Assembly (NCBI GenBank): GCA_963718525.1
Contig: OY970355.1
Location: 2,184,025 to 2,248,024 of the forward strand
Length of the DNA: 64,000 nucleotides
From: Candidatus Dormiibacterota bacterium
GTDB taxonomy: Bacteria; Chloroflexota; Dormibacteria; Aeolococcales; Aeolococcaceae
Direction: 5' to 3'
The notes under the pieces were generated by a model that did no database searches, was not told the DNA's origin, and saw nothing but the letters and a program-made list of their open reading frames with translations. The position numbers were made by a program, and so were the translations under genes. This document shows positions 4,068 through 63,886 of the stretch, piece by piece; position 1 is the first letter of the stretch; each line of letters starts with the position of its first letter.

Positions 4068-4417
4068 ATGTCGACGCGATTCCAATGGAATCCAATCATC
4101 ACGCTCTAGTCATCATTCCAACCAATTCGCCACGAAACCACTCAAAGTCGAACTCACCCCGCATCGGGAAATAAGTGCTGGTCTGGGGGACCAGGGGTCG
4201 CAGGTTCGAGTCCTGTCTCCCCGACGGACGCGCAAGTTGAATTCACAGCGAGCGGTTGCGCGGTGCGTTAGGCCCCAGCGGCGAACGGGGTGTAGTGCTC
4301 TAACCAGGAATGATGACTTTTCCTGCAGAAGGCATCATTCCCCGCGGTTGAGGCCGGATGCCGCTGCTCATATGAAGAGATTGTGGCAGTCCAGCGCATA
4401 CATATCGCTTACAGTTT
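4068..4417 (+). repeat. tRNA-Pro(GGG) 3'-half repeat unit, copy 1 (type A downstream arm)
   Basis: Core 4178-4224 is CTGGTCTGGGGGACCAGGGGTCGCAGGTTCGAGTCCTGTCTCCCCGA. The upstream arm starts ATGTCGACGCGATTCCAATGGAATCCA. The downstream arm aligns with copies 5 and 8 as far as CGCTTACAGTTT. Confidence 0.9.
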
Positions 4418-4578
4418 GGAAGGCCTCGACCCGCTGTGAAAGTCCGGCAGATACTTGACATCGCAGGTCCAAGAGATGCTTGACGGTGTGCGGCGCGTCC
4501 GCCTGATGCTTGACACAACCGACCTCCCTCCGGTCCGCTCGTCCGCAAGGACTGAGCGCCATCGGAGGGACCAGGTTC

Positions 4579-4640
4579 GTGCTTGTGGAGTTGAACGTGG
4601 TGGAACAGCGCTACCGGGTCGTCCTGGAGACCTATCTCGG
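4579..4640 (+). pseudogene. Remnant of an IS481-like transposase N-terminus
   Basis: It reads VLVELNVVEQRYRVVLE, which I recognise as the N-terminal motif of a class of actinobacterial IS481-family transposases. The frame then degenerates and is cut by the IS481 insertion at 4745. Confidence 0.35.
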
Positions 4641-4744
4641 TGTCGCCGCGCGACTCCCGAGACTCAATGGCCAAGCTCTTGTTCTATGGGATCGGGAGAC
4701 ATCAAGCTGATTGAGTCCGGTGGCTCGAAGAGCCGCTACCTAGA

Positions 4745-5773
4745 TGTAGTGCCCATAGAGGTTGTTGACAAAGAGAGAGCCCCGCGGCTGAGTTTGGGTT
4801 GTTGAAATCCACCCAGACGGAGGCTCTCCGGTGTCCCATCCTAAGGCGGTACTCACCCCAGTAGGCAGGCTGATTCTGGTTCAGCGAATTGCCCAAGGAC
4901 GTCCCGCGGCGCACGTCGCCGGCGAGATGGGCGTGTCCCGGGCGACGGCGTACAAGTGGTGGCATCGGTACGTCCGAGAGGGCGAGGCGGGTCTGCTCGA
5001 TCGGAGCTCCCGGCCGCTGCGCAGCCCACGGCGGACATCGGCGCGGGTGGAGCGCCGGATCGAGGCTTTGCGACGCCGCACCAAGCTCGGTCCAGTCCGG
5101 ATCGCCGTCCGCCTGCAGATGCCGGCCTCGACCGTCCATCGCGTGTTGGTGCGCCGGCAGTTGAATCGGCTGAGTTGGATGGATCGACCCACGGGACGCG
5201 TGATTCGTCGCTACGAGCACGAACACCCGGGCGACCTGGTCCACGTCGATGTCAAGAAGCTGGGGCGGATCCCGCCCGGCGGTGGCTGGCGTGTGCACGG
5301 GCGCCTCGGACATCCCTCCACCGGTGTCGGCTACGACTACATCCACTCCGCGGTGGACGATCACTCACGGCTTGCCTACTCGGAGATCTGCAGCGACGAA
5401 AAAGGTCCGACTGCCGCTGCATTCTGGGTTCGTGCCACGGGGTTCTTCGCGGCCCACGGCATCGCGGTGCAACGTGTGCTCACCGACAACGCCTTCGCCT
5501 ACCGGAACTCCGTCATCTTCCGAGCCGCGGTGCTCCAAAGTGGCGCGGTGCAGCGCTTCACGCAGCCGCGCCGGCCTCAGACCAACGGCAAGGTCGAGCG
5601 CTTCAACCGGACCTTGCTTGAAGAATGGGCATACGTTCGACCCTATGCCTCAAATCAGCGACGCGCCCAGGCCTTGACGACCTGGCTGCACATCTACAAC
5701 CATCACCGTGCCCACACCAGTCTCGGTCAGCTCCCACCCATCTCACGCCTCAACAACGTGTCTGGGCATTACA
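4745..5773 (+). mobile_element. IS481-family insertion sequence (1029 bp) with CCTAGA target-site duplication
   Basis: Terminal inverted repeats are TGTAGTGCCCATAGAGGTTGTTGA (left) and TGTAATGCCCAGACACGTTGTTGA (reverse complement of the right end). It is flanked by CCTAGA at 4739-4744 and 5774-5779. NCTAGN duplication is characteristic of IS481. Confidence 0.85.
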
Positions 5774-5778
5774 CCTAG
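4831..5778 (+). CDS. IS481-family transposase (HTH + DDE/rve integrase core)
   Basis: MSHPKAVLTPVGRLILVQRI...GVSRATAYKWWHRY...HVDVKKLGRIP...DDHSRLAY...TDNAFAY...NGKVERFNRTLLEEWAY. The stop codon TAG lies inside the duplicated CCTAGA. Confidence 0.9.
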   Translation: MSHPKAVLTPVGRLILVQRIAQGRPAAHVAGEMGVSRATAYKWWHRYVREGEAGLLDRSSRPLRSPRRTSARVERRIEALRRRTKLGPVRIAVRLQMPASTVHRVLVRRQLNRLSWMDRPTGRVIRRYEHEHPGDLVHVDVKKLGRIPPGGGWRVHGRLGHPSTGVGYDYIHSAVDDHSRLAYSEICSDEKGPTAAAFWVRATGFFAAHGIAVQRVLTDNAFAYRNSVIFRAAVLQSGAVQRFTQPRRPQTNGKVERFNRTLLEEWAYVRPYASNQRRAQALTTWLHIYNHHRAHTSLGQLPPISRLNNVSGHYT

Positions 5779-5941
5779 ATATGTCGGGAGTGACAAATGG
5801 CGACTTCCCGAGTGGCTCGCCCAGCGGTCATGATGGAGGTCGTCGCCTGACATCTGCAGTCGCCATCATCGGGCCCTGTTGACGCGCGAGGCTCCTACAT
5901 AGAGACTTGGCAATCGCCGACCACCATGGAGGAACCGTTTG

Positions 5942-6325
5942 ATGCCAGGCGAACTGAGTAGTGTCGCAACCGACTTCTTCGCGGCGCTTGATGCCTTGGA
6001 TGCTGATCGGATGAGGCAGATGTTGACGGAGGACGTCCAGAGTGTCGACGAGGGCTCGCGACGCTGGCTGCGCGGCAGAGGCGACGTAGACAATTACCTC
6101 CGCGAGCTGATGCCCGCGGTGCGTGATGTGGAAACGCAACTTCGAGATGCGGAGGAGCGCATTTGGGGGGACACAGGGGTACTGACCTGTTGGATCGACC
6201 AGGACTACACGATGCACGGCACCCCGCAGCGCATCTCCGCTCCAACCACGCTGATCCTCCGTCGCGACGGCGGCGGCTGGAAGGTGGTGCTGTGGCATTC
6301 CATCCCTCTTCCCGAGCAGGCCTAG
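5942..6325 (+). CDS. NTF2-like / SnoaL-like (DUF4440-type) protein
   Basis: Small protein ending ...ISAPTTLILRRDGGGWKVVLWHSIPLP, typical of the NTF2 fold. GGAGGA lies 8 nt before ATG 5942. Confidence 0.65.
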   Translation: MPGELSSVATDFFAALDALDADRMRQMLTEDVQSVDEGSRRWLRGRGDVDNYLRELMPAVRDVETQLRDAEERIWGDTGVLTCWIDQDYTMHGTPQRISAPTTLILRRDGGGWKVVLWHSIPLPEQA

Positions 6326-6432
6326 CCATACCGTTAGTCCGGAAGGACGGCTAGCTCGAACTCGACCCAAAGTGAGCCGGCGAGTGTCAACGAACGTTGA
6401 GAGACGGGAGGCTTGAGGGATAGGGCATGTCG

Positions 6433-6467
6433 GGCGAACGAGGTGTAGTGCTCTAGCCGGGAATAAT
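6433..6467 (+). repeat. Solo fragment of the type-A downstream arm
   Basis: GGCGAACGAGGTGTAGTGCTCTAGCCGGGAATAAT matches GGCGAACGGGGTGTAGTGCTCTAACCAGGAATGAT of copy 1 (4280-4314). No core accompanies it. Confidence 0.5.
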
Positions 6468-6473
6468 CGAGGG

Positions 6474-6839
6474 TCAGCCGCGTGGGCGAAGTCCGTCGGT
6501 GATGTCCGCTTCGACGAGGATTTTCAGTGTTCCGTCGTGCTGGCGCTGAAAGACAACGACGTACTTTCCCTGCTCGGTCGGAGTTGCGTAGTGACCGACA
6601 TCGACGAGGTCGCCGTCCTCGAAAACGTCGACGCTGTCGAACTTGGTCGTGATGGGACCATCCTTCAGCGCTTTGTCGTAGACCGCGGCGACGGCTTGAT
6701 GACCCTGGAGCATCGGGGTGTCGGAGAAGCAAAGCCTGGCGTCATGCGTATACAGACCGATCATCCGGTCGACGTCCCGGTCCGCCAGGGCCTGAGCGTA
6801 TTCGTTGTTGATCGCGTCGACGTCGTCTCGGGTCGTCAT
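6474..6839 (-). CDS. NTF2-like / SnoaL-like (DUF4440-type) protein
   Basis: MTTRDDVDAINNEYAQALADRDVDRMIGLYTHDARL...GKYVVVFQRQHDGTLKIL, a typical DUF4440/SnoaL pattern. Confidence 0.65.
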   Translation of the reverse strand: MTTRDDVDAINNEYAQALADRDVDRMIGLYTHDARLCFSDTPMLQGHQAVAAVYDKALKDGPITTKFDSVDVFEDGDLVDVGHYATPTEQGKYVVVFQRQHDGTLKILVEADITDGLRPRG

Positions 6840-6961
6840 TCACTCCTCCAGCGCCATGCGGATTGTGTTGCAGGCGTGAGGGTAAGGCACCCGGCACATC
6901 GGACGTGATCGCGTCGGGCGTCGATGGTGATCCTCGCCGTCTCTCCGGATGACTGTTCGTG

Positions 6962-7753
6962 TTACTTAGAAAATTGCGTCGTCGGTCGAGGGCGGAGGGT
7001 GCCGTCGACACGGATGTCGACCCTCTCGTTGTAGAAAGCGATGAGCCCGGCGATGGGGAGGAGTTGGTGCGTCGGGAAGTCGTAGGTCCACGCCACCTCG
7101 TGCCGCGTCGCTTCGCCTGTGCCGAGTGACCAGTAACCACTGGTTCGTCCCTTGTACGGGCAGGCGGTGACGGTGTCTGTTGCTATCAGGTGCTCGAAGT
7201 GCACCTCGGTCCGATTCAGGTAGTACCGCGTAGGCAGACCAGTCTCGAAAACCATGACCGGTGATGACAACTCAGCGAGGACCGTCCCGCCGGCTTCCAC
7301 GCGGACGTGGCGTGTCGACCGCAGCGCATCGACCCGGGTATATGGGTTGCGGGGGTGGACGAAGACCTCCTCATCCTCCTCGAACCATGCGTCAAGGGCG
7401 TCCCAGTCGAAACGGGCGGTGCCCGCCAAGCTGCTCGGTGCCTCCGGCGTGAGAATCCGCACCGAGCGCGGACGATTCGTTCCGCCGACCTGCAGTCCGT
7501 GGAGTTGTGCCGTCCCATTTCGCCCCTGAGCCGTTGCCTTCTCGTCGACGAGCAGGAGCGGGTTCACGTCCGCAACCGGTATGTAGTACTGGGGATAGTT
7601 GGGCGACTCCCACACGTACTGCGCTCGAATGGTATCGAGCACCACCTCGCCGGCGAGGACGGCGCGGATCCGTCGAGGTACCGGCTCGATGTGGTCGATG
7701 GGAACGATCACCTGCGGGTAGTCACGCATCAGATCCCGCTCGGTGTTCAGCAT
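6962..7753 (-). CDS. DUF427-domain protein (two DUF427-like halves)
   Basis: IEPVPRRIRAVLAGEVVLDT...YVWESPNYPQYYIP and VRVEAGGTVLAE...VFETGLPTRYYL...CPYKG are DUF427 signatures. Start taken at ATG 7753 to avoid overlap with the anti-sigma gene. Confidence 0.7.
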   Translation of the reverse strand: MLNTERDLMRDYPQVIVPIDHIEPVPRRIRAVLAGEVVLDTIRAQYVWESPNYPQYYIPVADVNPLLLVDEKATAQGRNGTAQLHGLQVGGTNRPRSVRILTPEAPSSLAGTARFDWDALDAWFEEDEEVFVHPRNPYTRVDALRSTRHVRVEAGGTVLAELSSPVMVFETGLPTRYYLNRTEVHFEHLIATDTVTACPYKGRTSGYWSLGTGEATRHEVAWTYDFPTHQLLPIAGLIAFYNERVDIRVDGTLRPRPTTQFSK

Positions 7754-7775
7754 GCTGCGGTGTGGAACCTCCGGC

Positions 7776-7997
7776 TCAGGTCGCGGGAGGCGCGATCGCC
7801 GCCAGCAACCCCTCGAAGTCCTCCGCGCATGGGCCGCAAGCACGCAGGTGCGCGGCGATCCCCGGGTATCGTGATGCCGTGGCCGGGTCGGCGGCCACCA
7901 ACTCGACGTAGACGTGCATCCATCTCATCGCCTCCTCGCATCCCACATCCTGGGGATCGGTCTGCAGGAAGCGATCCAGCGCCGACTGCCCGTTCAC
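7776..7997 (-). CDS. Putative zinc-binding anti-sigma factor (ZAS, zf-HC2-like)
   Basis: 73 aa with an H-x3-C-x2-C motif (HLRACGPC). The start overlaps the stop of the ECF sigma gene (ATGA). Confidence 0.6.
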   Translation of the reverse strand: MNGQSALDRFLQTDPQDVGCEEAMRWMHVYVELVAADPATASRYPGIAAHLRACGPCAEDFEGLLAAIAPPAT

Positions 7998-8668
7998 GGT
8001 CGCCTCGAAGTGTTGTTGTTCAGATACCCATTAGCGACGAGCGCTGCCCGTAACTTACGTCGGGCGTCGAACAGAGCCTTGTAAATGGCGTTTCGGTTCG
8101 AGCCGAGCTCAGCGGCGAGCGCGTCAACGGGGACTTCATTGAGCACGATCGAGACGAAGATCCGACGTTGCCGGTTGGTCAGGACCGTGTCTATCAGCCG
8201 GTGCAAGGCGGCCACCAGTTCCCGCCACTCTGTCTCTTGGGCGGGGTCGAGGGCGAGCCGATTCGGGAGCCGCTCCCAGTGCTCTGCGTCAATCGGCGCG
8301 GTCGGGTTGCGCCAGAAATGACGTCCGATCTTCGTCGAGACCTCGAACATCACGAACTTGAACGCCCAGGTGGTGAATCGGCTATCGCCTCGAAACTGCC
8401 CGGTCTTCGCGATGATGGCCATCAGCGCGTCGTTTGCGGCCTGGTGAGCGATGTCATCGAGCTCGGGTCCACTGATCTTCAGCTGGCCGCTGCGCCGTTG
8501 TACTTCGCTGCGAGCGATGCGCAACAGCAGGGCATGGAGTCGGATCTGGGCAGCATCGCTGTCGCGGGCGCTGCCGCCGAGCGAGCGGAGCCACTCGGCA
8601 GAATCCGGATCCAGCTCTGCATCTAACGTCGCGCATCCGCCGCGTGCGGTCGGCTCCGCTGGCTCCAT
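7994..8668 (-). CDS. ECF-type RNA polymerase sigma-70 factor
   Basis: Region 2 (DDIAHQAANDALMAIIAKTGQFRGDSRFTTWAFKFV) and region 4 (LTNRQRRIFVSIVLNEVPVDALAAELGSNRNAIYKALFDARRKLR). Confidence 0.85.
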   Translation of the reverse strand: MEPAEPTARGGCATLDAELDPDSAEWLRSLGGSARDSDAAQIRLHALLLRIARSEVQRRSGQLKISGPELDDIAHQAANDALMAIIAKTGQFRGDSRFTTWAFKFVMFEVSTKIGRHFWRNPTAPIDAEHWERLPNRLALDPAQETEWRELVAALHRLIDTVLTNRQRRIFVSIVLNEVPVDALAAELGSNRNAIYKALFDARRKLRAALVANGYLNNNTSRRP

Positions 8669-8795
8669 AAACCGATTCTAGTGAGCCCGGCAACTCGTAC
8701 GCTTCGGCGCTCGGTTGATGGAGTCGCTCCCCAATGCCCCGGCCGTCTGAGGCGCACGAGGTAGAACTCGAGGCCGACGCCGCCACCAACCAAAC

Positions 8796-9560
8796 ATGAG
8801 TATCTCGTTGGAGGGTAAGACCGCGCTGGTCACCGGAGCGGGACGAGGCATCGGGCGTGCCGTTGCACTGCAGCTCACTGGTGCCGGTGTTGCGGTTGCC
8901 CTGGTCGCGCGGTCAAAAGACGAGCTCGACGAGACAGCTCATCGGGTGCGCGCGCTCGGTCGAGCTGCACTTGTTGTCCCGGCGGATCTCGGCAAGTTGG
9001 ACGAACTTCAGCGAGCCGTGCGACGCACAAACGACGAACTTGGTGCGGTGGACATACTTGTCAACAACGCTGCGGTCGTCTGGCCGCTCGGTGCGAGCGT
9101 CACCGTCGAGCCAGCCGAGTGGGCGGCGGCGATCGCGATAAACCTCGTGGCCGTCGCAGCGCTGAGTTTCGCGCTGCTCCCGTCCATGCTCGATCGAGGA
9201 TGGGGACGCATCGTCAATGTATCGAGCGCCATCGCCGAGCATCCCGGCGCCATGATCGGAGCCAACGCTTACGCGACCGGCAAGGCCGCCCTCGAAGCCC
9301 ACACGGTCAACCTGGCCGCCGAACTAGCCGGAAGTGGCGTCACCGTCAATGCCTTCCGACCCGGATCGGTCGACACCGCCATGCCCGCGTGGATCCGCGG
9401 CCAAGATCCAGCACGAATCGGGGCGCCACTGCACCAGCGGTTCGCGCGCTCGTATGCCGAAGGCCTACTGATCTCCCCCGAACAGCCTGCCCGGTCTCTG
9501 CTCATGCACCTGCAGCGTGACGCCACAGGAGAGATCTGGGACGTGTCTGACACCACATAG
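8796..9560 (+). CDS. SDR-family oxidoreductase
   Basis: Rossmann motif TALVTGAGRGIGRAV, an NNAA motif, and a Y-x3-K region (YATGKAALEA). Confidence 0.85.
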   Translation: MSISLEGKTALVTGAGRGIGRAVALQLTGAGVAVALVARSKDELDETAHRVRALGRAALVVPADLGKLDELQRAVRRTNDELGAVDILVNNAAVVWPLGASVTVEPAEWAAAIAINLVAVAALSFALLPSMLDRGWGRIVNVSSAIAEHPGAMIGANAYATGKAALEAHTVNLAAELAGSGVTVNAFRPGSVDTAMPAWIRGQDPARIGAPLHQRFARSYAEGLLISPEQPARSLLMHLQRDATGEIWDVSDTT

Positions 9561-9589
9561 CTTCAACCGCACAGTAAGGAGACCCACAC

Positions 9590-10075
9590 ATGACTCTGCT
9601 GCATCCGGGCGACGTTTTCCCTTCGCTCACCGTGATGCCGGTCGGCGGGGCAGCGCTCCAGCTTCCGGATGCGGTCACTGGCCATTTCGCCGCAGTCTTG
9701 TTCTACCGAGGATCGTGGTGTCCATACTGCAACGGCCAGCTGCGGGCCTTCGCGCGAGCTCACGACAGTCTTGCTGTCGTGGACGCGAAGGTGGTCGCAC
9801 TCTCGGTCGATGACGAGAGCACGACCCAAGCATTGATCGCAAAGCTCGGCCTCAACTTCCCCGTCGGATACAGCGCCGACGCCAAGGCCGTCGCAGAGGC
9901 GACCGGGGCGTTCGTCAACCCCGACCCGATGTATCTGCAATCCACGGGGTTCGTGCTCGACCCCGGCGGACGCGTCGTCGTCAGCGTCTACTCGAGCGGC
10001 GCCATCGGGCGGCTCGTCCCCGAGGACGTAGTGGGTTTGATCCGCTACCTGCGCGACCATGCCGCTGCCGCATGA
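9590..10075 (+). CDS. Peroxiredoxin / AhpC-TSA (redoxin) family protein
   Basis: FYRGSWCPYCNGQLRAF active-site motif. AAGGAGA precedes the ATG. Confidence 0.8.
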   Translation: MTLLHPGDVFPSLTVMPVGGAALQLPDAVTGHFAAVLFYRGSWCPYCNGQLRAFARAHDSLAVVDAKVVALSVDDESTTQALIAKLGLNFPVGYSADAKAVAEATGAFVNPDPMYLQSTGFVLDPGGRVVVSVYSSGAIGRLVPEDVVGLIRYLRDHAAAA

Positions 10076-10201
10076 ACACTGCTTCGAACGAAGGAGCAAG
10101 CCGTGGGATCTTCATGATCGCCTGCGTCGCCGCGGCCTGCTGACGCCAAGTGACTAAGATGCCGCCTTGGACCGTCACACGAGAGAAGTCAAGGAGCCGA
10201 A

Positions 10202-10465
10202 ATGACCGCTGCCACCATCGCTGAGCAGGTCAGCGCCATTAACGCCGGCGCGCAGCTTCACTCGGTCTCGACCTCACCACCGTCAATGCCGACGGCGCCA
10301 TCGCATCCCTATGCCCGCACCTTCATCATCGACGCCGACCGTGTCATTCGCTGGATAGACGTTCACCCCGACTACTCCACCCGCCCCGAACCAGCTGACA
10401 TCCTGGCCGCCCACGATGGCTGCCGGGTTCTGACCGTTGACCCGACCCCAAGGAGAAGGACATGA
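10202..10465 (+). pseudogene. Probable remnant of a second AhpC/TSA-family gene (C-terminal part, frame-broken)
   Basis: ...ARTFIIDADRVIRWIDVHPDYSTRPEPADILAA resembles a peroxiredoxin C-terminus. The preceding LGLDLTTVNADGAIA reads in another frame, and there is no catalytic N-terminus. Confidence 0.4.
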
Positions 10466-10758
10466 CGATACGACTGGGCGTGCTCGCCCTCCTCGAAGCT
10501 AAGCCCGGTAAAGGCGATGAGCTTGGCGCCTTCCTCGAGGCCGGTCGGGGCCTCGCGGCGGCGGAACCCGGAACCGTGACCTGGTATGCGTTCAAGATCA
10601 CCGACGCCAGCTACGGGATCTTCGACACCTTCGAAACCGGCGACGCCCGACAAGCCCACCTGGACGGCGAGATCCCCCGAGCCCTCGCCCAGATCGGACC
10701 GGACCTGCTGGCCCGGGACCCTGACATTCGCCTCGTCGACGTCATCGCCGTCAAATAG
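10462..10758 (+). CDS. Antibiotic-biosynthesis-monooxygenase (ABM) domain protein
   Basis: 98 aa, LEAKPGKGDELGAFLEAG...GTVTWYAFKI...YGIFDTFE...AHL, a typical ABM ferredoxin-like fold pattern. Confidence 0.7.
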   Translation: MTIRLGVLALLEAKPGKGDELGAFLEAGRGLAAAEPGTVTWYAFKITDASYGIFDTFETGDARQAHLDGEIPRALAQIGPDLLARDPDIRLVDVIAVK

Positions 10759-10969
10759 ATCAGCGCCTTCGTTACAGGCTGATAAAGGGGCCGGCGACGA
10801 CTGGGAGGGGTTCCGGTATGGCTCTGCTCTACGACCACCCTTTCTCCCGCTCGGGGCTTTCGAGGGGGTCGTATTAGGGATTGACCAGGTTCCCCACGTC
10901 GGTCGCTCCCCCGTGGCTCTAGTGCACCAGGTGGTGTCGTCGATCGGTGAATCTGCGTTGAAGTGACGG

Positions 10970-11548
10970 CTAGGGTAAGGGGGGCCTCAGTCCGTTGAAG
11001 AAGACGGTGACAAGGGTCCGAGATCGCTCGACCCCGTTTGGCGCATCGGTGTCCAGGCAGAGAGCGCTCACGGCACGTAACAGGTCCGCCTGGTTGACGC
11101 CCGGTCGTATCGTCCCGGCCGCGACCCCGGCATCGAGCAGGCGACCCGCGGCGCCGTGCACTCGGGCCTCGGCCGTGCCGACCGGGTACGCATCGAGGTT
11201 GAACACGGTAAGAACGGCTGCCGCAAGGCCGCGTTTGGCGGTGATGAAATTTACCAGTCGCTGCATCCACTTCCCAAGCGCCTCATCCGGGGGCAGCGCC
11301 GCCAGCAGCTGGTCTGCGGCGACGTCGAGGGCGTCAACCTCTTGGCTGTAGAGGGCCCATACCAGCGCGTCACGAGTCGGAAAGTGCCGGTACAGGGTGC
11401 CCATACCGACACCGGCCCGGCGAGCGATCTCATCCACGCCGGCCGTCGGGTTTGTCTTCAGAGTCGCCGCCGCGGCCTCAAGGAGTTGGGCACGGTTGCG
11501 GGCTGCGTCGGCTCGCAGTGGCTTCTCGATGGGGTTATTTGCGGTCAC
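10970..11548 (-). CDS. TetR-family transcriptional regulator
   Basis: N-terminal HTH RADAARNRAQLLEAAAATL...VDEIARRAGVGMGTLYRHFPTRDAL. Confidence 0.85.
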   Translation of the reverse strand: MTANNPIEKPLRADAARNRAQLLEAAAATLKTNPTAGVDEIARRAGVGMGTLYRHFPTRDALVWALYSQEVDALDVAADQLLAALPPDEALGKWMQRLVNFITAKRGLAAAVLTVFNLDAYPVGTAEARVHGAAGRLLDAGVAAGTIRPGVNQADLLRAVSALCLDTDAPNGVERSRTLVTVFFNGLRPPLP

Positions 11549-11652
11549 GGGCTCCCCATTTGACGAAACGGAGTGATCTCCGTATCATATACCGGAGCGC
11601 GCTCCGCTTACCGGATCAGAGGCCCCCTACCGAGGGCGAAGGAGAACACGAA

Positions 11653-12957: not shown

Positions 12958-13021
12958 GTCAGCATTCTGACATATAGTGGTCGAGTGTCAGAAAACTGAC
13001 ATACTATGAGGAGCCAAACAC

Positions 13022-22792: not shown

Positions 22793-22805
22793 CCACATGA
22801 AGGGG

Positions 22806-55611: not shown

Positions 55612-55793
55612 GGATGTCGACGCGATTCCAGCGGATTCCATTACCCGACCTATTGTCGTCATTCCAACCATTTACCAACGAAAGCCCTTATAAGTCGCAC
55701 TCACTCCGATCGCGAAATAGGTACTGGTCTGGGGGCCAGTGGTCGCAGGTTCGAGTCCTGTCTCCCCGATTCGCAGCCCATTGCACTGCAGTG
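55612..55793 (+). repeat. tRNA-Pro(GGG) 3'-half repeat unit, copy 6 (type B, degenerate core, truncated downstream arm)
   Basis: Core 55724-55769 carries one deletion and one substitution (GGGGGCCAGTGGTC). The upstream arm has GCGATTCCAGCGGATTCCA. Downstream similarity stops after ATTCGCAGCCCATTGCACTGCAGTG. Confidence 0.85.
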
Positions 55794-55810
55794 AAGATGT
55801 TTTCGCTCAG

Positions 55811-56677
55811 CTAGCTACGCCGGCCGGTCACGCGGTCAAGCGTGAGGAGGGTAAGGTCAGCGACGTTGCAGGCCTCACGTACGACCATGAGCGCCATCTC
55901 GGTAGTGACGCCGGTCGGCAAGGTGCGGCCATGGCCGGCTCCTTCAAGACCGCGCAACTTGTTGACTTGGTCGGCGATGGTCCAGGAACTCTGGAGGATT
56001 GCCTTGATATTGGTCGCTCCTACGCGGGTGGTGTCCACTTGGGAAGGAAGCAACCCGAGCCGGTCGCGAGCGAGATGCCAAAGTGGGTTGAAGTCGGCAT
56101 TTGCGGGCGCAGGGAAATCCATCTCCTGAAGAACGAATTTAGCGACCGCCTCGAGCAAGTCCTTCGCCGACCCGAGTAACTGACCCGGATCATCCGCGGC
56201 CCGGCGCAAGCGGTCGAGCTGCTCGTCGAGCGCGTCCCTGCGGCCCGGCGCAAGCGGTCGAGCTGCTCGTCGAGCGCGTCCCTGCCTCCGGTCGCGAGGT
56301 CGATGGGCCGATCCGCGTCAAAACGCCGTCGTCGGACAGGATCAGCCAGCGCGACGGAACGCCTGCTGAGCGATCCGGACGGCAGCCGGGTCATGGGTTT
56401 CGCTCGCCTTGTCGAAGCAACCGCATACCCGAAGTTCGACCAGGATTGCCTCAACTAAGCTTCGCGCGCGACGTGGCCGTCGGATAGCTGCAGTCAGGAC
56501 CGTGTGGACACGTGTTTGTTTGTTCGGTGTTTGCGTTGCCCGTGAGTAGGGATCGGCGTCGCCATATCCCGCCCCGGCCACAAAACGGCTGATGGTGGGG
56601 TGTGAAGGGCCCGCGCCGCCATAGAAGAAGCGCGCCAATGCAACCGCAACTCCGTCACTCACAGGAGCTTCGCCCAT
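55811..56677 (-). pseudogene. Abortive-infection (Abi_C-domain) protein gene, disrupted
   Basis: The C-terminal ORF has QLLGSAKDLLEAVAKFVL...NKLRGLEGAGHGR (Abi_C signature). The N-terminal ORF (56342-56677) reads MGEAPVSDGVAVALARFFYGGAGPSHPTISRF.... The two are separated by a 44-nt tandem duplication and at least one further frame change. Confidence 0.7.
56196..56283. repeat. Perfect 44-nt tandem duplication inside the Abi gene
   Basis: GCGGCCCGGCGCAAGCGGTCGAGCTGCTCGTCGAGCGCGTCCCT occurs at 56196-56239 and again at 56240-56283. Confidence 0.95.
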
Positions 56678-57110
56678 GGCTTCATTCTCCCTCGTGGTTG
56701 GCCGCTGGCATCGAGCCGAGCGATCGTCCCAAAAGTAGTTGCGGCGAATCACGACCGGTCGAGCCGACTTGCGGGGAAGGCGGGTTTCGATGGTGGAGCA
56801 GGGCGCCATGTCAACTCCCTTGAGAAGCGAGCTTGGTCTCGCTACGGCCAGGGTCGGAATACGAACCAGCATTGACCTGGGGACCAGGTTTCGGGGCTCT
56901 GCACGAGGCGCGATACGACGTTTGTTCGTTGAAAGTCGGCTGGCGTCCAGGCGGGATTCGGACTTAGACGCTACCGAACGGCGGCCCATGGGTCCTGTCA
57001 CCGGACCCGCAGCGGCCAAGAGTTTGACGGCGCCGACGGTCACTTCGGCGCGCGGGATGCCCGCGGACGAACGATCAGCCCGGAAGAGGCGATCAGTTCG
57101 GGGGGCGCTG

Positions 57111-57319
57111 GCTGTCGAAGCGAATCCACCGGATTCCAACAAGCACGATCTAGCCGTCATTCCAACCATTTCCCGACGAAAGCCCTCCAACTCGAACTCA
57201 ATCCGCATCGGGAAATAAGGACTAGTCTGGGGGACCAGGAGTAGCAGGTTCGAGTCCTGTCTCCCCGATTCGCAGCCCTTTGCAGGGCAGTGCAGCCTTG
57301 TCCAGCCAATTCCACCCCC
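57111..57319 (+). repeat. tRNA-Pro(GGG) 3'-half repeat unit, copy 7 (type B), left part, interrupted by IS256
   Basis: Core 57222-57268 has two substitutions (CCAGGAGTAGCAGG). The downstream arm ...CAGCCTTGTCCAGCCAATTCCACCCCC is cut at 57319. Confidence 0.85.
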
Positions 57320-57437
57320 AGTGATGTCCCGTAGTGTGGTGTAAATCCGGGGTGACCCCAGCGCTGCCGACGAGGTAGACAAAGAAGGCCACCGCGGAGT
57401 TCTCTTGGAAGCTCTTACCCAAACCAGGAGACCCACG

Positions 57438-58493
57438 ATGGCCCAGAACAGGATGATGCCCCCGGCACTGCTCGAGCAACTCCAGGGCGCAGACACGGAC
57501 GTGTTGCGGCGCGTCCTCGAACACGCTATGCAGCGCTTGATCGAAGCCGAGGCGTCCACCCAGATCGGCGCCGGCCCGCACGAGCGAGCTTCAACGCGCA
57601 CCACGTACCGCAACGGCTATCGGGAGCGGATCCTCGACACCGGCTCGGGACGCCTCGAGCTGCAGATCCCCAAGCTGCGCACGGGGAGCTTCTTCCCGAC
57701 CTTGCTCGAGCCGCGACGGCGTATTGATCGGGCCCTGCTGGCGGCGGTCCAGGAGGCCTACGTGCTCGGCATCAGCACTCGCAAGGTCGACGATCTCATG
57801 GCTGCGCTGGGCGGCTGCAGCATCAGTCGCAGCGAGGTGAGCAGGATCTGCGCCCTGCTCGACGAGGAGCTCGCCGAGTTCCGGGAGCGCCCCCTCGATG
57901 AGCCGTACCCGTACGTGTGGTTCGACGCCACGTACGAGAAGGTGCGTCAGGGCGCCCGCATCGTCAGCCAGGCGGCGGTGGTGGCGGTGGGCGTGCGCGA
58001 CACCGGCGAGAAGAGCGTGCTCGGCCTCGCCATTGGTGCCAGCGAGACCGAGGCCTTCTGGCTGGAGTTCTGCCGCAGCCTGGCCCGGCGCGGGCTGAGC
58101 GGCGTACAGCTGGTCATCTCCGACGCCCACGAAGGGCTGCGCAGTGCCTTGTCCCAGGTGTTCGCCGGCGCGACCTGGCAGCGCTGCAAGGTGCACTTCC
58201 TCCGCAACGTGGCCAGCGCGGTCCCCAAGCTGCACGCGCCGGCGGTGCTCGCGGTGGTGAAGTCGATCTTCCTGCAGCCCACTCGCGAGACTTCCCGTGA
58301 CGCCGTGAACCACGCGCTCAGCGTCTTGGAGCCACGCTTCCCAACTGTGGCTGCCAAGCTCCGCGCCGCTGAGGCCGATGTGCTCGCCTATCTGGACTTC
58401 CCGGTCGACCACTGGCGCTCGATCTCTTCGACCAATGCCATCGAGCGCGTCAACGCCGAGCTCGATCGTCGCGCCAAGGTGGTGGGCATCTTC
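57438..58493 (+). pseudogene. IS256-family transposase, N-terminal 352 codons (interrupted by IS110)
   Basis: MAQNRMMPPALLEQL...WLEFCRSLARRGLSGVQLVISDAHEGL...STNAIERVNAELDRRAKVVGIF. Similarity to IS256 transposases then stops abruptly. Confidence 0.85.
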
Positions 58494-58722
58494 CTGCGTC
58501 TGTACGCTCTCCCGTGGCAGTGGCGGAAGCACCGCTGTTGCTGCGAGGCTCCCGTGGGGCCGAGGGTGACCCGGCATTTTTCTGTCGAGCCCTCGGGCTC
58601 TGACCTGGTTAGGGCCAGTCCCCTCGGTCTTCGCGGGTGGCCGAGTGACCTCATAGCGGCGTGAATACTGAACGGCAGGAATGTCCGAGGCCATCCACCC
58701 ATCAACACCACGGAGGGTCGGC
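58494..58722 (+). ncRNA. Candidate IS110 bridge RNA (left non-coding end)
   Basis: The left non-coding end is 229 nt against an 11-nt right end. It contains CGCTGTTG (58533-58540), complementary to the right target flank CAACAGCG (59792-59799). It also contains CATAGCGGCG (58652-58661), identical to the IS right terminus (59779-59788). The structure was not modelled. Confidence 0.4.
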
Positions 58723-59778
58723 ATGGTCATCATCGGCATCGATTGCCACACAAGGGTTCATGTGGCTGCAGCCATTGACGGATCGGGGCAGGTCTGTGCG
58801 CGCTTCACAGCGGGTGCCAAGGCTGAGGAGCTCGAAGCGCTCACAAGGTGGGCGTGCCAACAAGCAGCCGGCCTGATCGCCGTCGAGGGCGCACGAGGCT
58901 TTGGCCTCGCGCTCACTCGATGCCTCCTCGCCGCTGGCTTGGAGGTCGTCGATGTCCCAACGCACATGACCGCTGACGGGCGCCGTCAGAGCCGCCGTCC
59001 GGGAAAGGACGATGAGAGCGATGCGGTGGTCATCGCGCGAGTTGCACTACGTGAACACGACCTGCCGCGGTTGCGTCCGGCGCATCTTGACTCGGATCTC
59101 AAACTGCTGGTGGACGCACGCGATCAGGTTGTTGCAGAAGGCACTCGTGTACGCAACCGGCTGCATGCGCTGCTGCTCACCGTGTCGCCCGGCTACCGCG
59201 ATCACACCGGCGCTCTGTCGAGCAAGCGCGCACTCATCGTCGCTCGTCGCTTGGTGCTCCGAGCACGAGCGGCAGATCCGGTTCGCTGCCGCCTGGCCCT
59301 TGCAGCCATTCGCCAACTCCACGCCATCGATGCTGAAGCAGCCGGGCTGGAGGGCGAGATCAAACAAGCCGTGAGCGCAAGGCACCCGAAGCAGCTGCTC
59401 GCCATTTGCGGTGTGAGCACGCTGGTGGCCGGCAAGCTCCTCGGTGAGGCCCACGACATCACACGCTTCCCGACGGCGGCGTCGTTCGCAGCCCACGCTG
59501 GCGCCGCCCCGCTTCCGGCATCGAGCGGCGTCACGCGGCGACACCGTCTCAACCGAGGCGGCAACCGTCAACTCAACCGAGCCCTCTTCACGATCGCCAT
59601 GGTGCAGGCACGCTGGCACCCTGGAGCGGTCGCCTATCTGGAGCGAAAACGTGGCGAAGGCAAGCGACCCGCCGAAGCGCGACGCTGCCTCATGCGCCAC
59701 CTTGCGGGTGTCGTCCACCGCGCCATGTTCCTCGACGCGACCGCGGTCAGCGCGAGTTCGGCCATGCCTGCCGCTTGA
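58723..59778 (+). CDS. IS110-family transposase/recombinase (DEDD RuvC-like N-terminal domain plus Tnp C-terminal domain)
   Basis: MVIIGIDCHTRVHVAAAID...IAVEGARGFG...VVDVP...DDESDAVVIARVAL...LLAICGVSTLVAGKLLGE...AGAAPLPASSG...RLNRGGNRQLNRALF. ATG 58723 follows GGAGGG. ORF 58681 is an alternative start. Confidence 0.9.
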   Translation: MVIIGIDCHTRVHVAAAIDGSGQVCARFTAGAKAEELEALTRWACQQAAGLIAVEGARGFGLALTRCLLAAGLEVVDVPTHMTADGRRQSRRPGKDDESDAVVIARVALREHDLPRLRPAHLDSDLKLLVDARDQVVAEGTRVRNRLHALLLTVSPGYRDHTGALSSKRALIVARRLVLRARAADPVRCRLALAAIRQLHAIDAEAAGLEGEIKQAVSARHPKQLLAICGVSTLVAGKLLGEAHDITRFPTAASFAAHAGAAPLPASSGVTRRHRLNRGGNRQLNRALFTIAMVQARWHPGAVAYLERKRGEGKRPAEARRCLMRHLAGVVHRAMFLDATAVSASSAMPAA

Positions 59779-59789
59779 CATAGCGGCGC

Positions 59790-59957
59790 CCCAACAGCGC
59801 CTCACTGCTGCGGCTGTTCACCGCGGTGCTCCAGGACCAGCACGACGAGTGGCAGGACGGCCGCCGTCACTTCAGTCAGCAGTCGATGGCTCGCGTTTTG
59901 CACCCCGACGGTCCGCCCTTGCTCACCAACCCACTCACGGAGGGACTGGTCGCGTAG
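59790..59957 (+). pseudogene. IS256-family transposase, C-terminal fragment
   Basis: PNSASLLRLFTAVLQDQHDEWQDGRRHFSQQSMARVLHPDGPPLLTNPLTEGLVA* is the typical IS256 transposase C-terminus. Confidence 0.8.
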
Positions 59958-60020
59958 TTCACCGACGTTGTGAGAACTCCACCGAATTCACACCACTACC
60001 GGGGACTTGACCCCACCCCC

Positions 60021-60100
60021 TTCCAACTTTCGGGGATCAGTCACTGTGCAGGGACTAGTCCTTATTCGCTAATTGATGGCCTTTCCTGCAAAACCACTCT
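60021..60100 (+). repeat. tRNA-Pro(GGG) 3'-half repeat unit, copy 7, right part of the downstream arm
   Basis: TTCCAACTTTCGGGGATCAGTCACTGTGCAGGGACTAGTCCTTATTCGCTAATTGATGGCCTTTCCTGCAAAACCACT aligns with copy 4 (28921-28994). Confidence 0.8.
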
Positions 60101-60318
60101 AATGTCGTGCGGCCAAACGGCGATGTCCCGAGCGGGGCGCGACGCTCGCTTCGGGCCATTGCTTGGCGCGCCGCGGTCGGAAATGCGGCTGCGACTGAAC
60201 ATCCGTTCACCCGGATTGAACGCCTTGATGAGTGACGCCAAGGCGACCGGAGTGATGCTCTAGCAACCGGCCCTACCGTACTCGGCCTTAATCGGCGGCG
60301 AGAGCAAAGGAGGTAATC

Positions 60319-62013
60319 ATGGAACCTCACGATTGCCACCGGATCTGGAGGGGCAGGTCGCGTAAGTTCGCGGCTCTGGCCGCGGTAATGTTGGGGTCGG
60401 CGGTGGTGGGCGCAAGACCTGCCTCGGCGACGACATTCACTGTGTGCGGCAGTGGATGTGCTTACAGTCAGATTGGTGCTGCGGTCGCAGCTGCGAGCAG
60501 GGGCGACACAGTGAGCATCGGCCCTGGCAAATACGTCGGCGGTTTCACGATCGACCAAAGCGTGAGCCTCGTCGGCGCTGGCGCCCATGAGACGACGATC
60601 AGCGGCGGGGGGCCGGTGATCACGGTCGGGAAGTTCGGGGCCAAGACTGAGCCCACAGTCGCGCTCCGCGACCTAACGATCACCGGTGGCGTGACGGCGT
60701 CGAGCCCGGTGTCGATTGCGTATGTCGCCAAAGCAGGAGTGCTTGCCCTAGGAGGGGGTATCTTCGTCCCGCCCGCCGCAAAGTTCGCCGCGGGCGCGAC
60801 TTTCACGGTCAGCGACAGCGTCATCACGGGCAATATCGCCGCAGCGACCGCGTCCGTCGACGCCGGCTTCTCATGTGGGACGCACGACTGCCGATTCGCC
60901 ATAGCCGGCGGTGGCGGGATCGACAACTGGGGCCTTCTGACGGTCGAGAACACGATCGTCAGCAACAACGAGTTGGCAGGAGCGGTCACGAGTGACGCCG
61001 ACGGAGCCGGTATTTACACGCAGCAAGGCGCAATCACCCTGAAGAACAGCGTCGTGACCGGCAACCGTGCGATGGCGATCGCTCCGGACGGCCGCTTTGC
61101 CGAGGGCGCGGGCATCATGGTCGACACGACCTTCTCGGCCGGAGCTTGCACGCCCTGCACCCTGTCTGTTCAAAACAGCATCGTGCGCGACAACAACTCA
61201 AGTCTCGTCAACAACACTCTGCCTTCCTCCGTGGGAGCGCAGTCTGGGATGAATGCCAACGCCGGCGGCATACATGTGGGTGACGGCATTCCCACGACGG
61301 TCAAGAACACGGCGATCGATGACAACTCAGCGACTGCAATCGATCGACGAGGCGAGGCGCTCGGCATCGACGCCGGCATGATCGTCGGGTACAGTCCGCT
61401 CATCATGCAGAACACTCAGATCGACGACAACCGGTCGACGACGACAGTGCTGACTTCGACCGATGTGGGGCCAGCAGGCAGCGCTCTCGAACTCGATGGG
61501 GGCGGCACGATCAGCGGCACGAGCATCGATGACAACCTCGCGATCTCAACAAGTTCGGGTGGCTTAGCCGACACGAACGGTGGCTTGGCCATTTTCTACT
61601 TTGGCAATCTCGGCGGGGCGCAGCTAGTGACCGTGCGAGACAGTGATATCAGCGGCAATGTCACCGAGTCGTTCAGCAAGACAGGCTCAGCCCAGATCGA
61701 GGGCGGTGCGGTCTTCAACAACAGCTTGCTCGTGATGCGCAACGATCGCGTGAGCGACAACGTCGGGCGAGCGGAGGCGCCGACCGGTGTGGCCCAAGGG
61801 GGAGGCACCTGGAACGGGGTCGACGCGAGCACGGGCGCCAGCCCTCCGGCTCAGCTGACCCTCGAGAACACGAGCGTCACCCACAACGCCCTCGAAGGAG
61901 GCGCAGGCGTGACTCTTCAAGGCGGTGGCATCTTCACGGAGTCTCCGGCAACGCTCACGCTCACCAACACGCAAATCGCGTTCAACCGCCCGGACCAGTG
62001 CTTCGGGTGCTGA
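60319..62013 (+). CDS. Secreted right-handed parallel beta-helix repeat protein (pectin-lyase-fold)
   Basis: Signal peptide ...AAVMLGSAVVGARPASA, a CGSGC motif, then many repeats of the type ..I..N.A...GGGI.N.G.LT...S.V.GN. AGGAGG precedes the ATG. Confidence 0.75.
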   Translation: MEPHDCHRIWRGRSRKFAALAAVMLGSAVVGARPASATTFTVCGSGCAYSQIGAAVAAASRGDTVSIGPGKYVGGFTIDQSVSLVGAGAHETTISGGGPVITVGKFGAKTEPTVALRDLTITGGVTASSPVSIAYVAKAGVLALGGGIFVPPAAKFAAGATFTVSDSVITGNIAAATASVDAGFSCGTHDCRFAIAGGGGIDNWGLLTVENTIVSNNELAGAVTSDADGAGIYTQQGAITLKNSVVTGNRAMAIAPDGRFAEGAGIMVDTTFSAGACTPCTLSVQNSIVRDNNSSLVNNTLPSSVGAQSGMNANAGGIHVGDGIPTTVKNTAIDDNSATAIDRRGEALGIDAGMIVGYSPLIMQNTQIDDNRSTTTVLTSTDVGPAGSALELDGGGTISGTSIDDNLAISTSSGGLADTNGGLAIFYFGNLGGAQLVTVRDSDISGNVTESFSKTGSAQIEGGAVFNNSLLVMRNDRVSDNVGRAEAPTGVAQGGGTWNGVDASTGASPPAQLTLENTSVTHNALEGGAGVTLQGGGIFTESPATLTLTNTQIAFNRPDQCFGC

Positions 62014-62188
62014 CGGGCGGCCGGCCAACCGCGTGAGCCAGTCCGACTCGCGCGCACCGCGGCGATGGGCAGCGCTCGCCGGAATTTGCCGCGACATGTT
62101 CATGCGGAGCTGGGCCTCGGTGCGACCACAGGAGGACCGTAGTTGTCGGCGCAAATCCGGAAGTGACGGTTCAAGAGGGGAACTTGCT

Positions 62189-63034
62189 TTGAAAGCGGCT
62201 GGGGCTACCGCGGTCGCGGTGCTGCTCGCGCTAGTGACGTCTGCGTGCGGTGGCACAGCCTCAAGCGAGTCATCGTCGAGCCACGCTCAGCCGGACACGT
62301 TGCAGAGGGTGACGTCCACCCTGGACGGCGAGACGACCATTCCTCTCCGGACCCGGTGGATCGCGACACCCCAGCCGGCTGGCGCCCCAGTGACCGGGGT
62401 GGACTTCCTGATCGATGGGAAGCTGATCTGGACCGAACAGTCTGCTCCATATGTCTTTGGGGGCGACGACAATGGCACCAATCTCGGCTTCCTGATCACC
62501 ACTTGGCTTTCGCCCGGCGTGCACACTTTCACCGCTCGTGCCACGGGTGTTGCCGGTAAGACCGTCTCCGATGATGTGACTGCTAGCGTTGCCGCAGCGC
62601 CCGCGCCACCCGCCGCGCTCAAAGGAACCTGGACGCGAACCGTGACCCAGCCAGACATCGAACATGCGGGTGTCACCGAAGGGCCGCCGCCGACCGGCCA
62701 GTGGCACCTCGTCTTCGATCAGATCGGCGCTTGGGAACTCGACCCCCTCGGTTCCGGCGTCGGGAGCCAGTATGAGGCTCAGGGCGACACGCTCAACGTC
62801 TACGCACCCATTCAGGAAGCGCCGTTCAGTAACGGAATCGGGGGGATCAGCATGTACGGTCACCGCGATCTTGGTGGGACGGACTGCAACGCGTCGGGGC
62901 CGTTCGGTTCCTATCGCTGGTCGGTCGCGGGCAACAAGCTGACCTTGTCTGTGATCAATGAAGGGTGCCCCAACCGGCAAGCAATCTGGGAAGGTGTCTG
63001 GAGCCTTGAGAGCCCGACGACACCTCCGACCTGA
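62189..63034 (+). CDS. Hypothetical lipoprotein with an Ig-like domain
   Basis: TTG start 8 nt after AGAGGGG. MKAAGATAVAVLLALVTSACGG has a lipobox. FLIDGKLIWTEQSAPYVFGGD...GVHTFTARATG resembles bacterial Ig-like domains. Confidence 0.6.
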   Translation: MKAAGATAVAVLLALVTSACGGTASSESSSSHAQPDTLQRVTSTLDGETTIPLRTRWIATPQPAGAPVTGVDFLIDGKLIWTEQSAPYVFGGDDNGTNLGFLITTWLSPGVHTFTARATGVAGKTVSDDVTASVAAAPAPPAALKGTWTRTVTQPDIEHAGVTEGPPPTGQWHLVFDQIGAWELDPLGSGVGSQYEAQGDTLNVYAPIQEAPFSNGIGGISMYGHRDLGGTDCNASGPFGSYRWSVAGNKLTLSVINEGCPNRQAIWEGVWSLESPTTPPT

Positions 63035-63188
63035 ACCACGTAGACCGGCGGAGGAGGGCGCGGTTGGCGAGAGAACTCGAGCAGCCCGTGAGCAGCCCAT
63101 TGGCGGCGATGGTAGCCACCCGGCGAGTCTCTGCACACTGGACAACGCGCCTCGGCAATTGCGGTTACCGCGTGTCGCTTCCTCAACC

Positions 63189-63264
63189 GAGTGCAAGTTC
63201 GGAGCCGTCAGCGCCTGACGCGAACGGAGTGCAAGTTCGGAGCCGTCAGCGCCTGACGCGAACG
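63189..63264. repeat. Perfect 38-nt tandem duplication (intergenic)
   Basis: GAGTGCAAGTTCGGAGCCGTCAGCGCCTGACGCGAACG occurs at 63189-63226 and again at 63227-63264. Confidence 0.95.
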
Positions 63265-63540
63265 GGCGTCTCCGTGAGTTCTGTGGCGCTTCGTTTACCG
63301 ACTGCTAGCCACGGACGGGATCATGGCCGAGGGTGGCTTGACCGATCCCCCGGCTCACGTCTGCCGTCACGAAGACCGGCGAGAGCAGCAATCCCCACAG
63401 GAGCTTCCTGTCACCAGCCTCATGGCGAACTGAGGGCTGACGCCGGCGGTTGACTCGCCGAGCACGATGCTCATGCTCAAGAGTGTGGAGCGGGAGAGGA
63501 GCGCTATCGGCTTCGGCCTTAAGCGTGCCTGTTGATTTCT

Positions 63541-63886
63541 TCGCGAATCAAATGGATTCCAATAGCCACGGTCTAGTCGTCATTCCAACCAATTCGCTAC
63601 GAAAGCCCTCTAAGTCGAACTCACCCTGAATCAGGAAATAAGGACTGGTCTGGGGGACCAGGGGTCGCAGGTTCGAGTCCTGTCTCCCCGACGGACGCGC
63701 AAGTTGAATTCACAGCGAGCGGTTGCGCGGCGCGTCAGGCGCCCGTTCGGTTAGCGGGGTATACTGGTCTAGTCAGGAACAATGCCTTTCCCTGCAAAAG
63801 GCCTTATTACCGACGACCGGGTCCGGATTCCGCTGCTGATAGAGCGGGATTGTGGCACCCCAGCGCATACACATCGCTTACAGTTT
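63541..63886 (+). repeat. tRNA-Pro(GGG) 3'-half repeat unit, copy 8 (type A)
   Basis: Core 63645-63691. The first 40 nt of the downstream arm are identical to copy 1 (CGGACGCGCAAGTTGAATTCACAGCGAGCGGTTGCGCGG). Similarity to copy 1 runs to CGCTTACAGTTT. Confidence 0.9.

Follow-up and report, generated by a model that had tools for sequence, protein, structure and literature searches.

What assembles eight copies of the same half tRNA, all facing the same way, within 64 kb of one bacterial contig? The copies lie in a 64,000-nt stretch (hereafter the window) of contig OY970355.1, positions 2,184,025 to 2,248,024, from a member of Candidatus Dormibacterota, abundant uncultured bacteria of soil and permafrost. 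Each copy is a core of 43–47 nt that spans a tRNA from the anticodon stem-loop to the discriminator base, and each core is flanked by a left (P) arm and a right (P') arm; we call arms and core together a unit and the DNA between consecutive cores a module. The window modules are 1.5–20 kb long and carry genes on both strands. We consider it likely that the window lies inside a longer cassette array growing from the 3' end of the chromosomal tRNA-Pro(GGG) gene, in which cassettes without an integrase, bounded by attachment (att) sites, have been accreted and reshuffled via a rare and mobile integrase module. The locus looks like a main site of accessory-gene turnover in Dormibacterota. Such arrays measure from tens of kb to more than 150 kb, and among their cargo are regulators, a sigma factor, transporters, an ATPase operon and defence fragments; the arrays vary even where strains share more than 99% identity elsewhere.

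The initial annotation of the window had listed eight co-oriented units on the plus strand, and both a search with the 47-nt core and an nhmmer profile made from the left arms and cores of 84 related units recovered them; the core-to-core distances it gave (10.6, 6.4, 7.6, 6.6, 20.3, 1.5 and 6.4 kb) follow from the unit coordinates (Table 1). The 47-mer is present without mismatch in units 1 to 5 and 8 and with two mismatches in unit 7, and the copy in unit 6 has a 1-nt deletion (GGGGG-CCAG) and one substitution; in shuffled sequence, none is expected by chance. Across the window the profile found exactly these eight units, all in one orientation, and no degenerate extra ones. The distal region of a type A right arm remains near the left edge of the window, so that the array very probably continues with a ninth unit immediately beyond this edge. 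ARAGORN calls no tRNA gene in the window. In related Candidatus Dormibacterota genomes ARAGORN does call tRNA-Pro(GGG) genes, and their 3' part is identical to the core, which bears out the tRNA origin first proposed from the letters alone. Searched at gathering and E-value thresholds, Rfam gave weak tRNA hits only: its tRNA model reaches 29.3 bits on unit 1 (cut-off 29) and 22–23 bits on two other scanned units, and no other Rfam family matches the scanned units.

Where does such an array begin? We searched for the central 40 nt of the core in one genome per species; the counts that follow are lower bounds. At least 114 stretches were found, nearly all in metagenome-assembled genomes (MAGs) of Candidatus Dormibacterota. 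Among the matches listed, about 40 are genuine tRNA-Pro(GGG) genes with a normal 5' half, and the remainder bear the same conserved left arm of about 110 nt as the window units. Surrounding sequence was fetched only where the core was exact, so the true density of units is probably higher. Eight contigs hold both the true tRNA-Pro and units, and in every one of them the units are located 3' of the tRNA and share its strand. CAVPXI010000013.1 has the tRNA at 211,510 on the minus strand, and six units follow from 155,026 to 56,402 on the same strand, an array of at least 155 kb, and CAWKDT010000009.1 has seven units within 39 kb. The expectations set out in the initial annotation are borne out here: the 3' half of the genuine gene matches the core, the array begins at that gene in the related contigs, and the units are clustered and co-oriented rather than scattered. 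True tRNAs are often followed directly by the right-arm types of internal units. Their native upstream region consists of a conserved gene end and a promoter, and we ruled out that the P arm is a copy of this promoter region, since it has no homology to the native upstream flank. Some cores (in loci L004, L036, L044 and others; compared loci are numbered with an L) have another left arm (..GCAAATCGAATACGAAACGCACCTCTGGGGAGGACCACTGGTCT) and other right arms, and these point to at least one more element family on the same tRNA-Pro core.

The two arms behave differently. Upstream, the roughly 110-nt arm is conserved; downstream, the flanks had been taken as one family and instead fall into types A, A-int (an integrase-linked variant of A) and B in the window, with a type C in other genomes only. 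The P arm is conserved from about −115 to −8, with a block conserved above 80% (TAGTCGTCATTCCAACCAATTCCCGACGAAACCACTCTAAATCGAACT) and GATTCCA repeats ahead of it. The stretch beside the core could be what is left of a tRNA 5' half after erosion; where the 5' acceptor strand would be expected, conservation across units is poor. Over at least 84 units the arms are conserved position by position. Type A contains a 195-nt block more than 90% conserved across species that ends in a hairpin and a T-run, and the distal part of type B is a diverged copy of the P arm, as in unit 4. Types A, A-int and B have a module in common, (A/G)CGGGG..TAGTGCTC .. GATGAC TTTTCCTGCAAAA, which lies 20–30 nt before the integrase start in integrase-bearing copies, even in a distant lineage with a different tRNA T-arm. 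Integrase-less arms therefore keep the region upstream of the integrase without the gene, and this retention suggests that integrase-less modules may descend from integrase-bearing ones.

RNAalifold gave no conserved fold or covariation in 25 type A arms or 84 P arms (covariation term near 0), and the type A arm shows no codon periodicity; conserved open reading frames (ORFs) in it were dismissed as wrong-frame artefacts. Promoter and terminator scans of the units returned nothing above shuffles. The right arm as a general cassette promoter was ruled out, for the first downstream gene has no strand bias (55 co-oriented and 62 opposite, n = 117 over all loci). At the other side of the unit, the last upstream gene is co-oriented in 96 of 127 cases, compared with 64% for all genes of these loci. 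The type A block of the window (4225–4424, 35489–35616 and 63692–63891) includes a 15-bp hairpin, GGAATGATGACTTTT/AAAAGGCATCATTCC.

Do modules change places, and where? We compared the window with near-identical loci on contigs of metagenome sample ERZ25039590 and in two NCBI assemblies; the key contigs appear, judging by contig name and size, to be long-read assemblies. Strains that are 99.1–99.97% identical carry different neighbouring modules, and the identity switches exactly at the core, so the presence or absence of modules in relatives, which the initial annotation had named as a check, varies between near-identical strains with breakpoints at the core. In L122, positions 10074–24237 of the window are matched at 99.94% and the arrangement is unchanged. 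L115 is 99.5% identical from core 3 rightwards (21217–32140) and its left arm only about 75%; upstream of core 3 it holds an unrelated cassette with MMPL, two-component and sigma factor genes, which also occurs in three other species, each time with still other neighbours. L123 follows module 1 at 99.1% up to core 2 and then continues with a different type B arm and a NACHT-type gene. L124 follows module 1 at 99.9%, its match stops exactly at the core end, and a type A arm and an insertion sequence (IS) come next. Module 2 has in this way been exchanged for other modules in L115, L123 and L124. We considered whether L124 is a circular cassette and rejected this because its two ends fall in different IS types.

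The same pattern holds across species. When unit pairs from different loci were scored as sharing a flank at 85% identity or more over at least 500 bp, 28 pairs shared one side and one pair shared both. Segment by segment, identity switches at the core: the P arm tracks the upstream module and the P' arm tracks the downstream module. The third and fourth bases of the 47-mer narrow the position further. True tRNAs read CTGGTCT in 40 of 40 cases, and internal units read CTAGTCT (46), CTGGTCT (30) or CTAATCT (7). Judging from these counts, strand exchange must lie 3' of these third and fourth bases, which belong to the anticodon stem, because the tRNA would otherwise inherit the mismatch. Some tRNA-targeting integrases prefer the anticodon loop, which fits this position.

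Which enzyme could recombine the cores? The window has one tyrosine integrase, a small Xer-like protein encoded directly behind core 3 (Table 1). The earlier statement that only one module has a recombinase holds for tyrosine integrases and fails beyond them, since IS481, IS256 and IS110 transposases are present. The catalytic R..HxxR..W..Y residues are conserved. The protein is of the two-domain Xer type; its best models are XerA and XerC, all of them scoring far below the family cut-offs, and the NCBIfam integron integrase model gives 36.8 bits against a cut-off of 265. An exact-protein look-up returned no record. Fourteen homologues share at least 67% identity, after which identity drops to 42% and then to about 30%; close relatives are confined to Dormibacterota, with none above 42% outside this 14-member family.

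Integrase genes are rare and placed in a particular way. A broad recombinase profile run over about 0.87 Mb around 148 cores found members of this family and no other tyrosine recombinase; in every case the gene lies at about 124 nt, and never more than 130 nt, 3' of a core. The gene follows three of 29 true tRNAs, one of seven window units, and, elsewhere, none of 67 units with a P arm and none of 12 other cores. Seven of the eight window junctions are without it, and overall it is absent from about 97% of junctions, an occupancy of about 3%. No integrase remnants were seen in the other six complete window modules or in the 0.87 Mb of related loci. Among 185,579 species genomes we found eight integrase loci, one per MAG, by a peptide-pattern search that could miss divergent members; in all seven loci that are readable, the integrase directly follows the true tRNA. 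Similarity of these loci to the window copy is limited to the arm and the gene, and the cargo differs. Between MAGs whose chromosomal flanks are 78–82% identical, the integrase module is 95–98% identical, which shows that it moves horizontally. In a sister strain (L115:9971-10997) two overlapping ORFs take the place of one intact integrase gene, and the core is longer by an A; the cause is either a real frameshift or a homopolymer error of long-read sequencing.

What, then, is the mechanism? In the explanation that we favour, each module would be bounded by attP-like junctions of left arm, core and right arm, the left arm travelling with the upstream module and the right arm with the downstream one. 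The integrase module would enter at the tRNA, and its small Xer-like tyrosine recombinase would recombine cores; an exchange 3' of the third and fourth bases of the anticodon stem would always rebuild an intact tRNA. Integrase-less cassettes with two-armed sites would pile up downstream, and recombination between co-oriented cores could insert, excise, delete, fuse or co-mobilize modules, in trans or in cis, whenever an integrase is present. We infer that this integrase is the enzyme behind the swaps, that modules pass through circular intermediates and that it can still act in trans on integrase-less modules as substrates. Serial accretion of tRNA-Pro-targeting, mostly integrase-less modules with attP-like junctions, akin to cis-mobilizable elements (CIMEs), was also the preferred interpretation of the initial annotation, and the match to the tRNA, the anchoring and the swaps at the core support it. 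More tentatively, one could go further and see a tRNA-anchored, integron-like shuffling system, in which a single small Xer-like integrase, brought in by its own mobile module, works in trans to capture, excise and reorder integrase-less multi-gene cassettes by the dozen at long two-armed sites around a tRNA-Pro half, and in which the arms, including the 195-nt type A block, are functional cis elements (sites for accessory proteins or a small RNA) and not relics; we see this as possible, with the balance tilting against it.

Several observations weigh against the favoured explanation. Most MAGs that bear an array have no integrase, and present-day shuffling could therefore run on homologous recombination across the repeated core. 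The breakpoint in L120, which is 99.97% identical to the window until 33075, falls off a unit boundary, inside an HD-GerE gene. Among the contigs compared there is no excision product or circular cassette. CAVZPR010000001.1 has two further units that point the opposite way at a distance of about 640 kb from the tRNA-Pro (L020 and L038 versus L034 and L039); they could form a second array or have been displaced by a large inversion between units. The window does not extend to its own tRNA-Pro gene, and the comparison DNA consists mostly of MAGs and metagenome contigs, in which misjoins at repeats are possible. At 13097–14888 the L120 locus has a full-length HD-GerE gene of 508 aa and an extra unit; window module 4 is therefore two cassettes joined through a deletion in which a unit was lost.

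Could the att sites be fossils? They may stem from ordinary integrase-bearing islands of long ago that lost their integrases, with today's swaps, deletions and fusions produced by RecA-dependent homologous recombination between units of 300–450 bp. As the source of present-day exchange, homologous recombination between identical cores must be taken seriously as a rival, above all in the many arrays without an integrase: none of 79 internal junctions outside the window has one, and a cassette fusion breaks inside a gene, as just described. The perfect core of 44–47 nt is moreover the longest stretch of identity, so homologous exchange would map there too. As an account of the whole array, however, we think it unlikely. 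The losses that it supposes have left no integrase pseudogenes in the modules and loci surveyed, the arms are conserved across species in a position-specific manner that extends, in integrase-less modules, to the region upstream of the integrase, and swaps are seen between strains less than 1% divergent, in a population where the integrase is present. The integrase module of the window is also internal, so the integrase-less modules came after it or it inserted at an internal unit.

The initial annotation had also raised an integron-like array and a tRNA-derived dispersed repeat. An integron-like platform would have a resident integrase beside the tRNA as a fixed capture site, taking up and releasing promoterless cassettes at single-stranded folded sites, in the way that IntI uses attC. 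The integrase does stand at array position 1 in the seven readable species genomes, with at most one per genome and many integrase-less cassettes with conserved recombination sites behind it, but the array lacks the defining features of a classical integron: the enzyme falls far short of the integron integrase model, its module is horizontally mobile rather than resident and is missing from most arrays, the arms have no conserved fold or covariation, and the cassettes hold several genes on both strands with the first one co-oriented about as often as not (55/117). We therefore rate such a platform as very improbable. Still less credit goes to the idea that the unit is a structured RNA gene, either a tRNA-like RNA with extensions or a functional tRNA-Pro without a D arm, repeated for the function of the RNA. 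The Rfam score on unit 1 just above the cut-off, the lower scores on two others and the type A block with its hairpin and T-run speak for it; the absence of ARAGORN calls in the window, the poorly conserved 5' acceptor strand, the lack of P arm structure and of covariation in type A arms, and the lack of matches to other Rfam families speak against it, and the breakpoints demand recombination at the core regardless. A tRNA-derived, non-autonomous repeat inserting between the genes of a stable chromosome, like a miniature inverted-repeat transposable element (MITE), a repetitive extragenic palindrome (REP) or a short interspersed nuclear element (SINE), would explain a short conserved repeat with many copies per genome. 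It is nevertheless the least credible of all and close to excluded: synteny is lost at the units, both flanks being syntenic in only one of 29 pairs, the copies, all strictly in one orientation, cluster behind the 3' end of a single tRNA gene, they are not bordered by terminal inverted repeats or target duplications, and the arms segregate with different neighbours.

How does the tRNA-Pro array compare with known systems? The initial annotation knew of no described system with such a density of junctions; dense arrays of half-gene junctions in one orientation are on record for the ssrA islands of Dehalococcoides (PMC3146451) and the tycheposon islands of Prochlorococcus (bioRxiv 10.1101/2020.12.28.424599). 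The Dehalococcoides islands stand in tandem, bounded by 20-bp ssrA repeats, with more than a dozen repeats within 100 kb; 16 of 31 have a serine-recombinase module, and the 15 without it were proposed to be cis-mobilizable (McMurdie et al. 2011, PMC3146451). They are the closest precedent. Both systems have tandem modules 3' of one small-RNA gene, direct repeats of the 3' end of this gene, conserved flanks of the repeats and many modules without integration genes (about half in Dehalococcoides), and the host is a relative in the Chloroflexota/Dormibacterota neighbourhood. The target there is the transfer-messenger RNA (tmRNA) and here tRNA-Pro; the recombinase there is a large serine enzyme in a six-gene module and here a lone Xer-like tyrosine enzyme at about 3% of junctions; and the repeat there is 20 bp plus a 15-bp motif, whereas here a core of 44–47 nt has conserved arms of 110 nt and 120–400 nt.

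CIMEs such as those related to ICESt1 and ICESt3 of Streptococcus thermophilus have functional att sites and no integrase or transfer genes, and an integrase-bearing element beside them in tandem can mobilize them (PMC5704250). The window modules resemble them in being att-flanked and integrase-less, and we found no conjugation domains among about 50 scanned proteins. A CIME, however, is usually a single decayed derivative of an integrative and conjugative element (ICE) beside one ICE with conjugative transfer machinery; here there are arrays of many cassettes, with no conjugation genes seen, no integrase remnants and no ICE identified. In Prochlorococcus, tandem integrations of tyrosine-recombinase elements into tRNA genes are separated by partial tRNAs, older partial tRNAs are dispersed through cargo-rich DNA, and genes are gained and lost at strain level (Hackl et al., bioRxiv 10.1101/2020.12.28.424599). 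Compared by description, tycheposons carry their own integrase and replication genes, and their partial tRNAs are presented as remnants, not as long two-armed sites; the integrase family of our array has no close relatives outside Dormibacterota. With integrons the array shares integrase-less cassettes, conserved recombination sites and at most one tyrosine recombinase per array. It differs in its non-IntI enzyme, in attP-like duplex sites with a tRNA-derived core instead of folded attC hairpins, and in multi-gene bidirectional cassettes, one of which contains the integrase and is itself mobile. In integrative mobile elements exploiting Xer (IMEX) and the pdif modules of Acinetobacter plasmids, recombinase-less modules also lie between Xer-type sites and the enzyme acts in trans, there the host XerC/XerD on 28-bp dif-like sites; here, by contrast, the Xer-like enzyme is dedicated and mobile and goes with a tRNA-derived core and long arms. 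In the literature searched we found no description of the array or its integrase in Dormibacterota. What sets it apart from the known systems is its tRNA target, its minimal Xer-like enzyme, conserved arms of very great length, an integrase occupancy of about 3% and the array size. It extends the principle of tandem islands and CIMEs to a case with about 97% of junctions integrase-less, and one 332-aa recombinase with a site of about 300 bp makes a simple testable system that bears on how integrase-less modules stay mobile.

Table 1. Units, modules, recombinase and transposases in the window (window coordinates).
Feature	Position	Strand	Details
Unit 1	4047–4424	+	P arm 4047–4177, core 4178–4224, type A P' arm 4225–~4424
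Unit 2	14704–14990	+	P arm, core 14819–14865, type B P' arm
Unit 3	21089–21385	+	P arm, core 21217–21263, integrase-linked (A-int) P' arm up to the integrase start codon
Unit 4	28708–28996	+	P arm, core 28823–28869, type B P' arm
Unit 5	35318–35616	+	P arm, core 35442–35488, type A P' arm (model positions 1–134)
Unit 6	55592–55810	+	P arm, degenerate core 55724–55769, truncated type B arm
Unit 7	57104–57322	+	P arm, core 57222–57268, type B arm cut after ~55 nt, then IS256
Unit 8	63511–63891	+	P arm, core 63645–63691, type A P' arm (model positions 1–199)
Distal type A arm region	517–626	+	Model positions 209–318; behind partial IS256 copy
Xer-like tyrosine recombinase, 332 aa	21386–22384	+	Pfam Phage_integrase 97.5 bits; start 123 nt after core 3; sole tyrosine integrase in the window
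Module 1	4225–14818		Short-chain dehydrogenases/reductases (SDRs), redoxin, TetR/MarR, glyoxalase, NmrA-like genes
Module 2	14866–21216		Histidine kinase, lipoprotein, hypothetical genes
Module 3	21264–28822		Integrase, Crp-family regulator, RpoD-like sigma factor, aldehyde dehydrogenase
Module 4	28870–35441		Hydrolase, MarR, TetR, truncated HD-GerE, amidase
Module 5	35489–55723		Usp, two ATP-binding cassette (ABC) exporters, V/A-type ATPase operon, P-type ATPase, esterase, SHOCT protein
Module 6	55770–57221		Abi_C fragment only
Module 7	57269–63644		IS256 and IS110 transposases, unannotated proteins
Partial IS256/Mutator-family copy	1–417	−	Cut by the window edge
IS481-type transposase	4792–5775		Absent from L005 and L123 (site empty)
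IS256/Mutator-family transposase	57405–58664		Directly after the truncated right arm of unit 7
IS110-family transposase	58681–59778

The cargo of the modules is varied (Table 1). The sigma factor in the integrase module (25064–26164) is a full-length RpoD-like sigma-70 with regions 1.1 to 4, beside the Crp-family regulator. In the 20-kb module 5, the two ABC exporters lie at 36334–40220 and the V/A-type ATPase operon and P-type cation ATPase at 41254–50467. The sole recognizable content of the 1.5-kb module 6 is a 132-aa ORF on the minus strand (55811–56209) that has an Abi_C domain only, in line with the dead Abi gene that had been annotated.

Insertion sequences are frequent enough to give the arrays the look of IS sinks. 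Directly behind unit 1, up to 4628, comes what remains of the left end of an IS of the IS481 family; it is interrupted by the unrelated IS481-type transposase of Table 1, which is only 30% identical to the transposase of that IS. A conserved protein beside type A arms was considered as a component of the system and rejected, as it belongs to this IS481-family insertion sequence. Of this element the window keeps only left-end remnants (4425–4628 and 517–626). In several genomes it sits at the same position of the type A arm, at about +200 (L070:4170-5655; L124:9470-10345), and it has a 386-aa DDE transposase, inverted ends of about 50 bp (TGTGTAGAAGTCC..CTTGACA), each with two repeats, and a target duplication of about 13 bp (GACGGCGAGCGTC).

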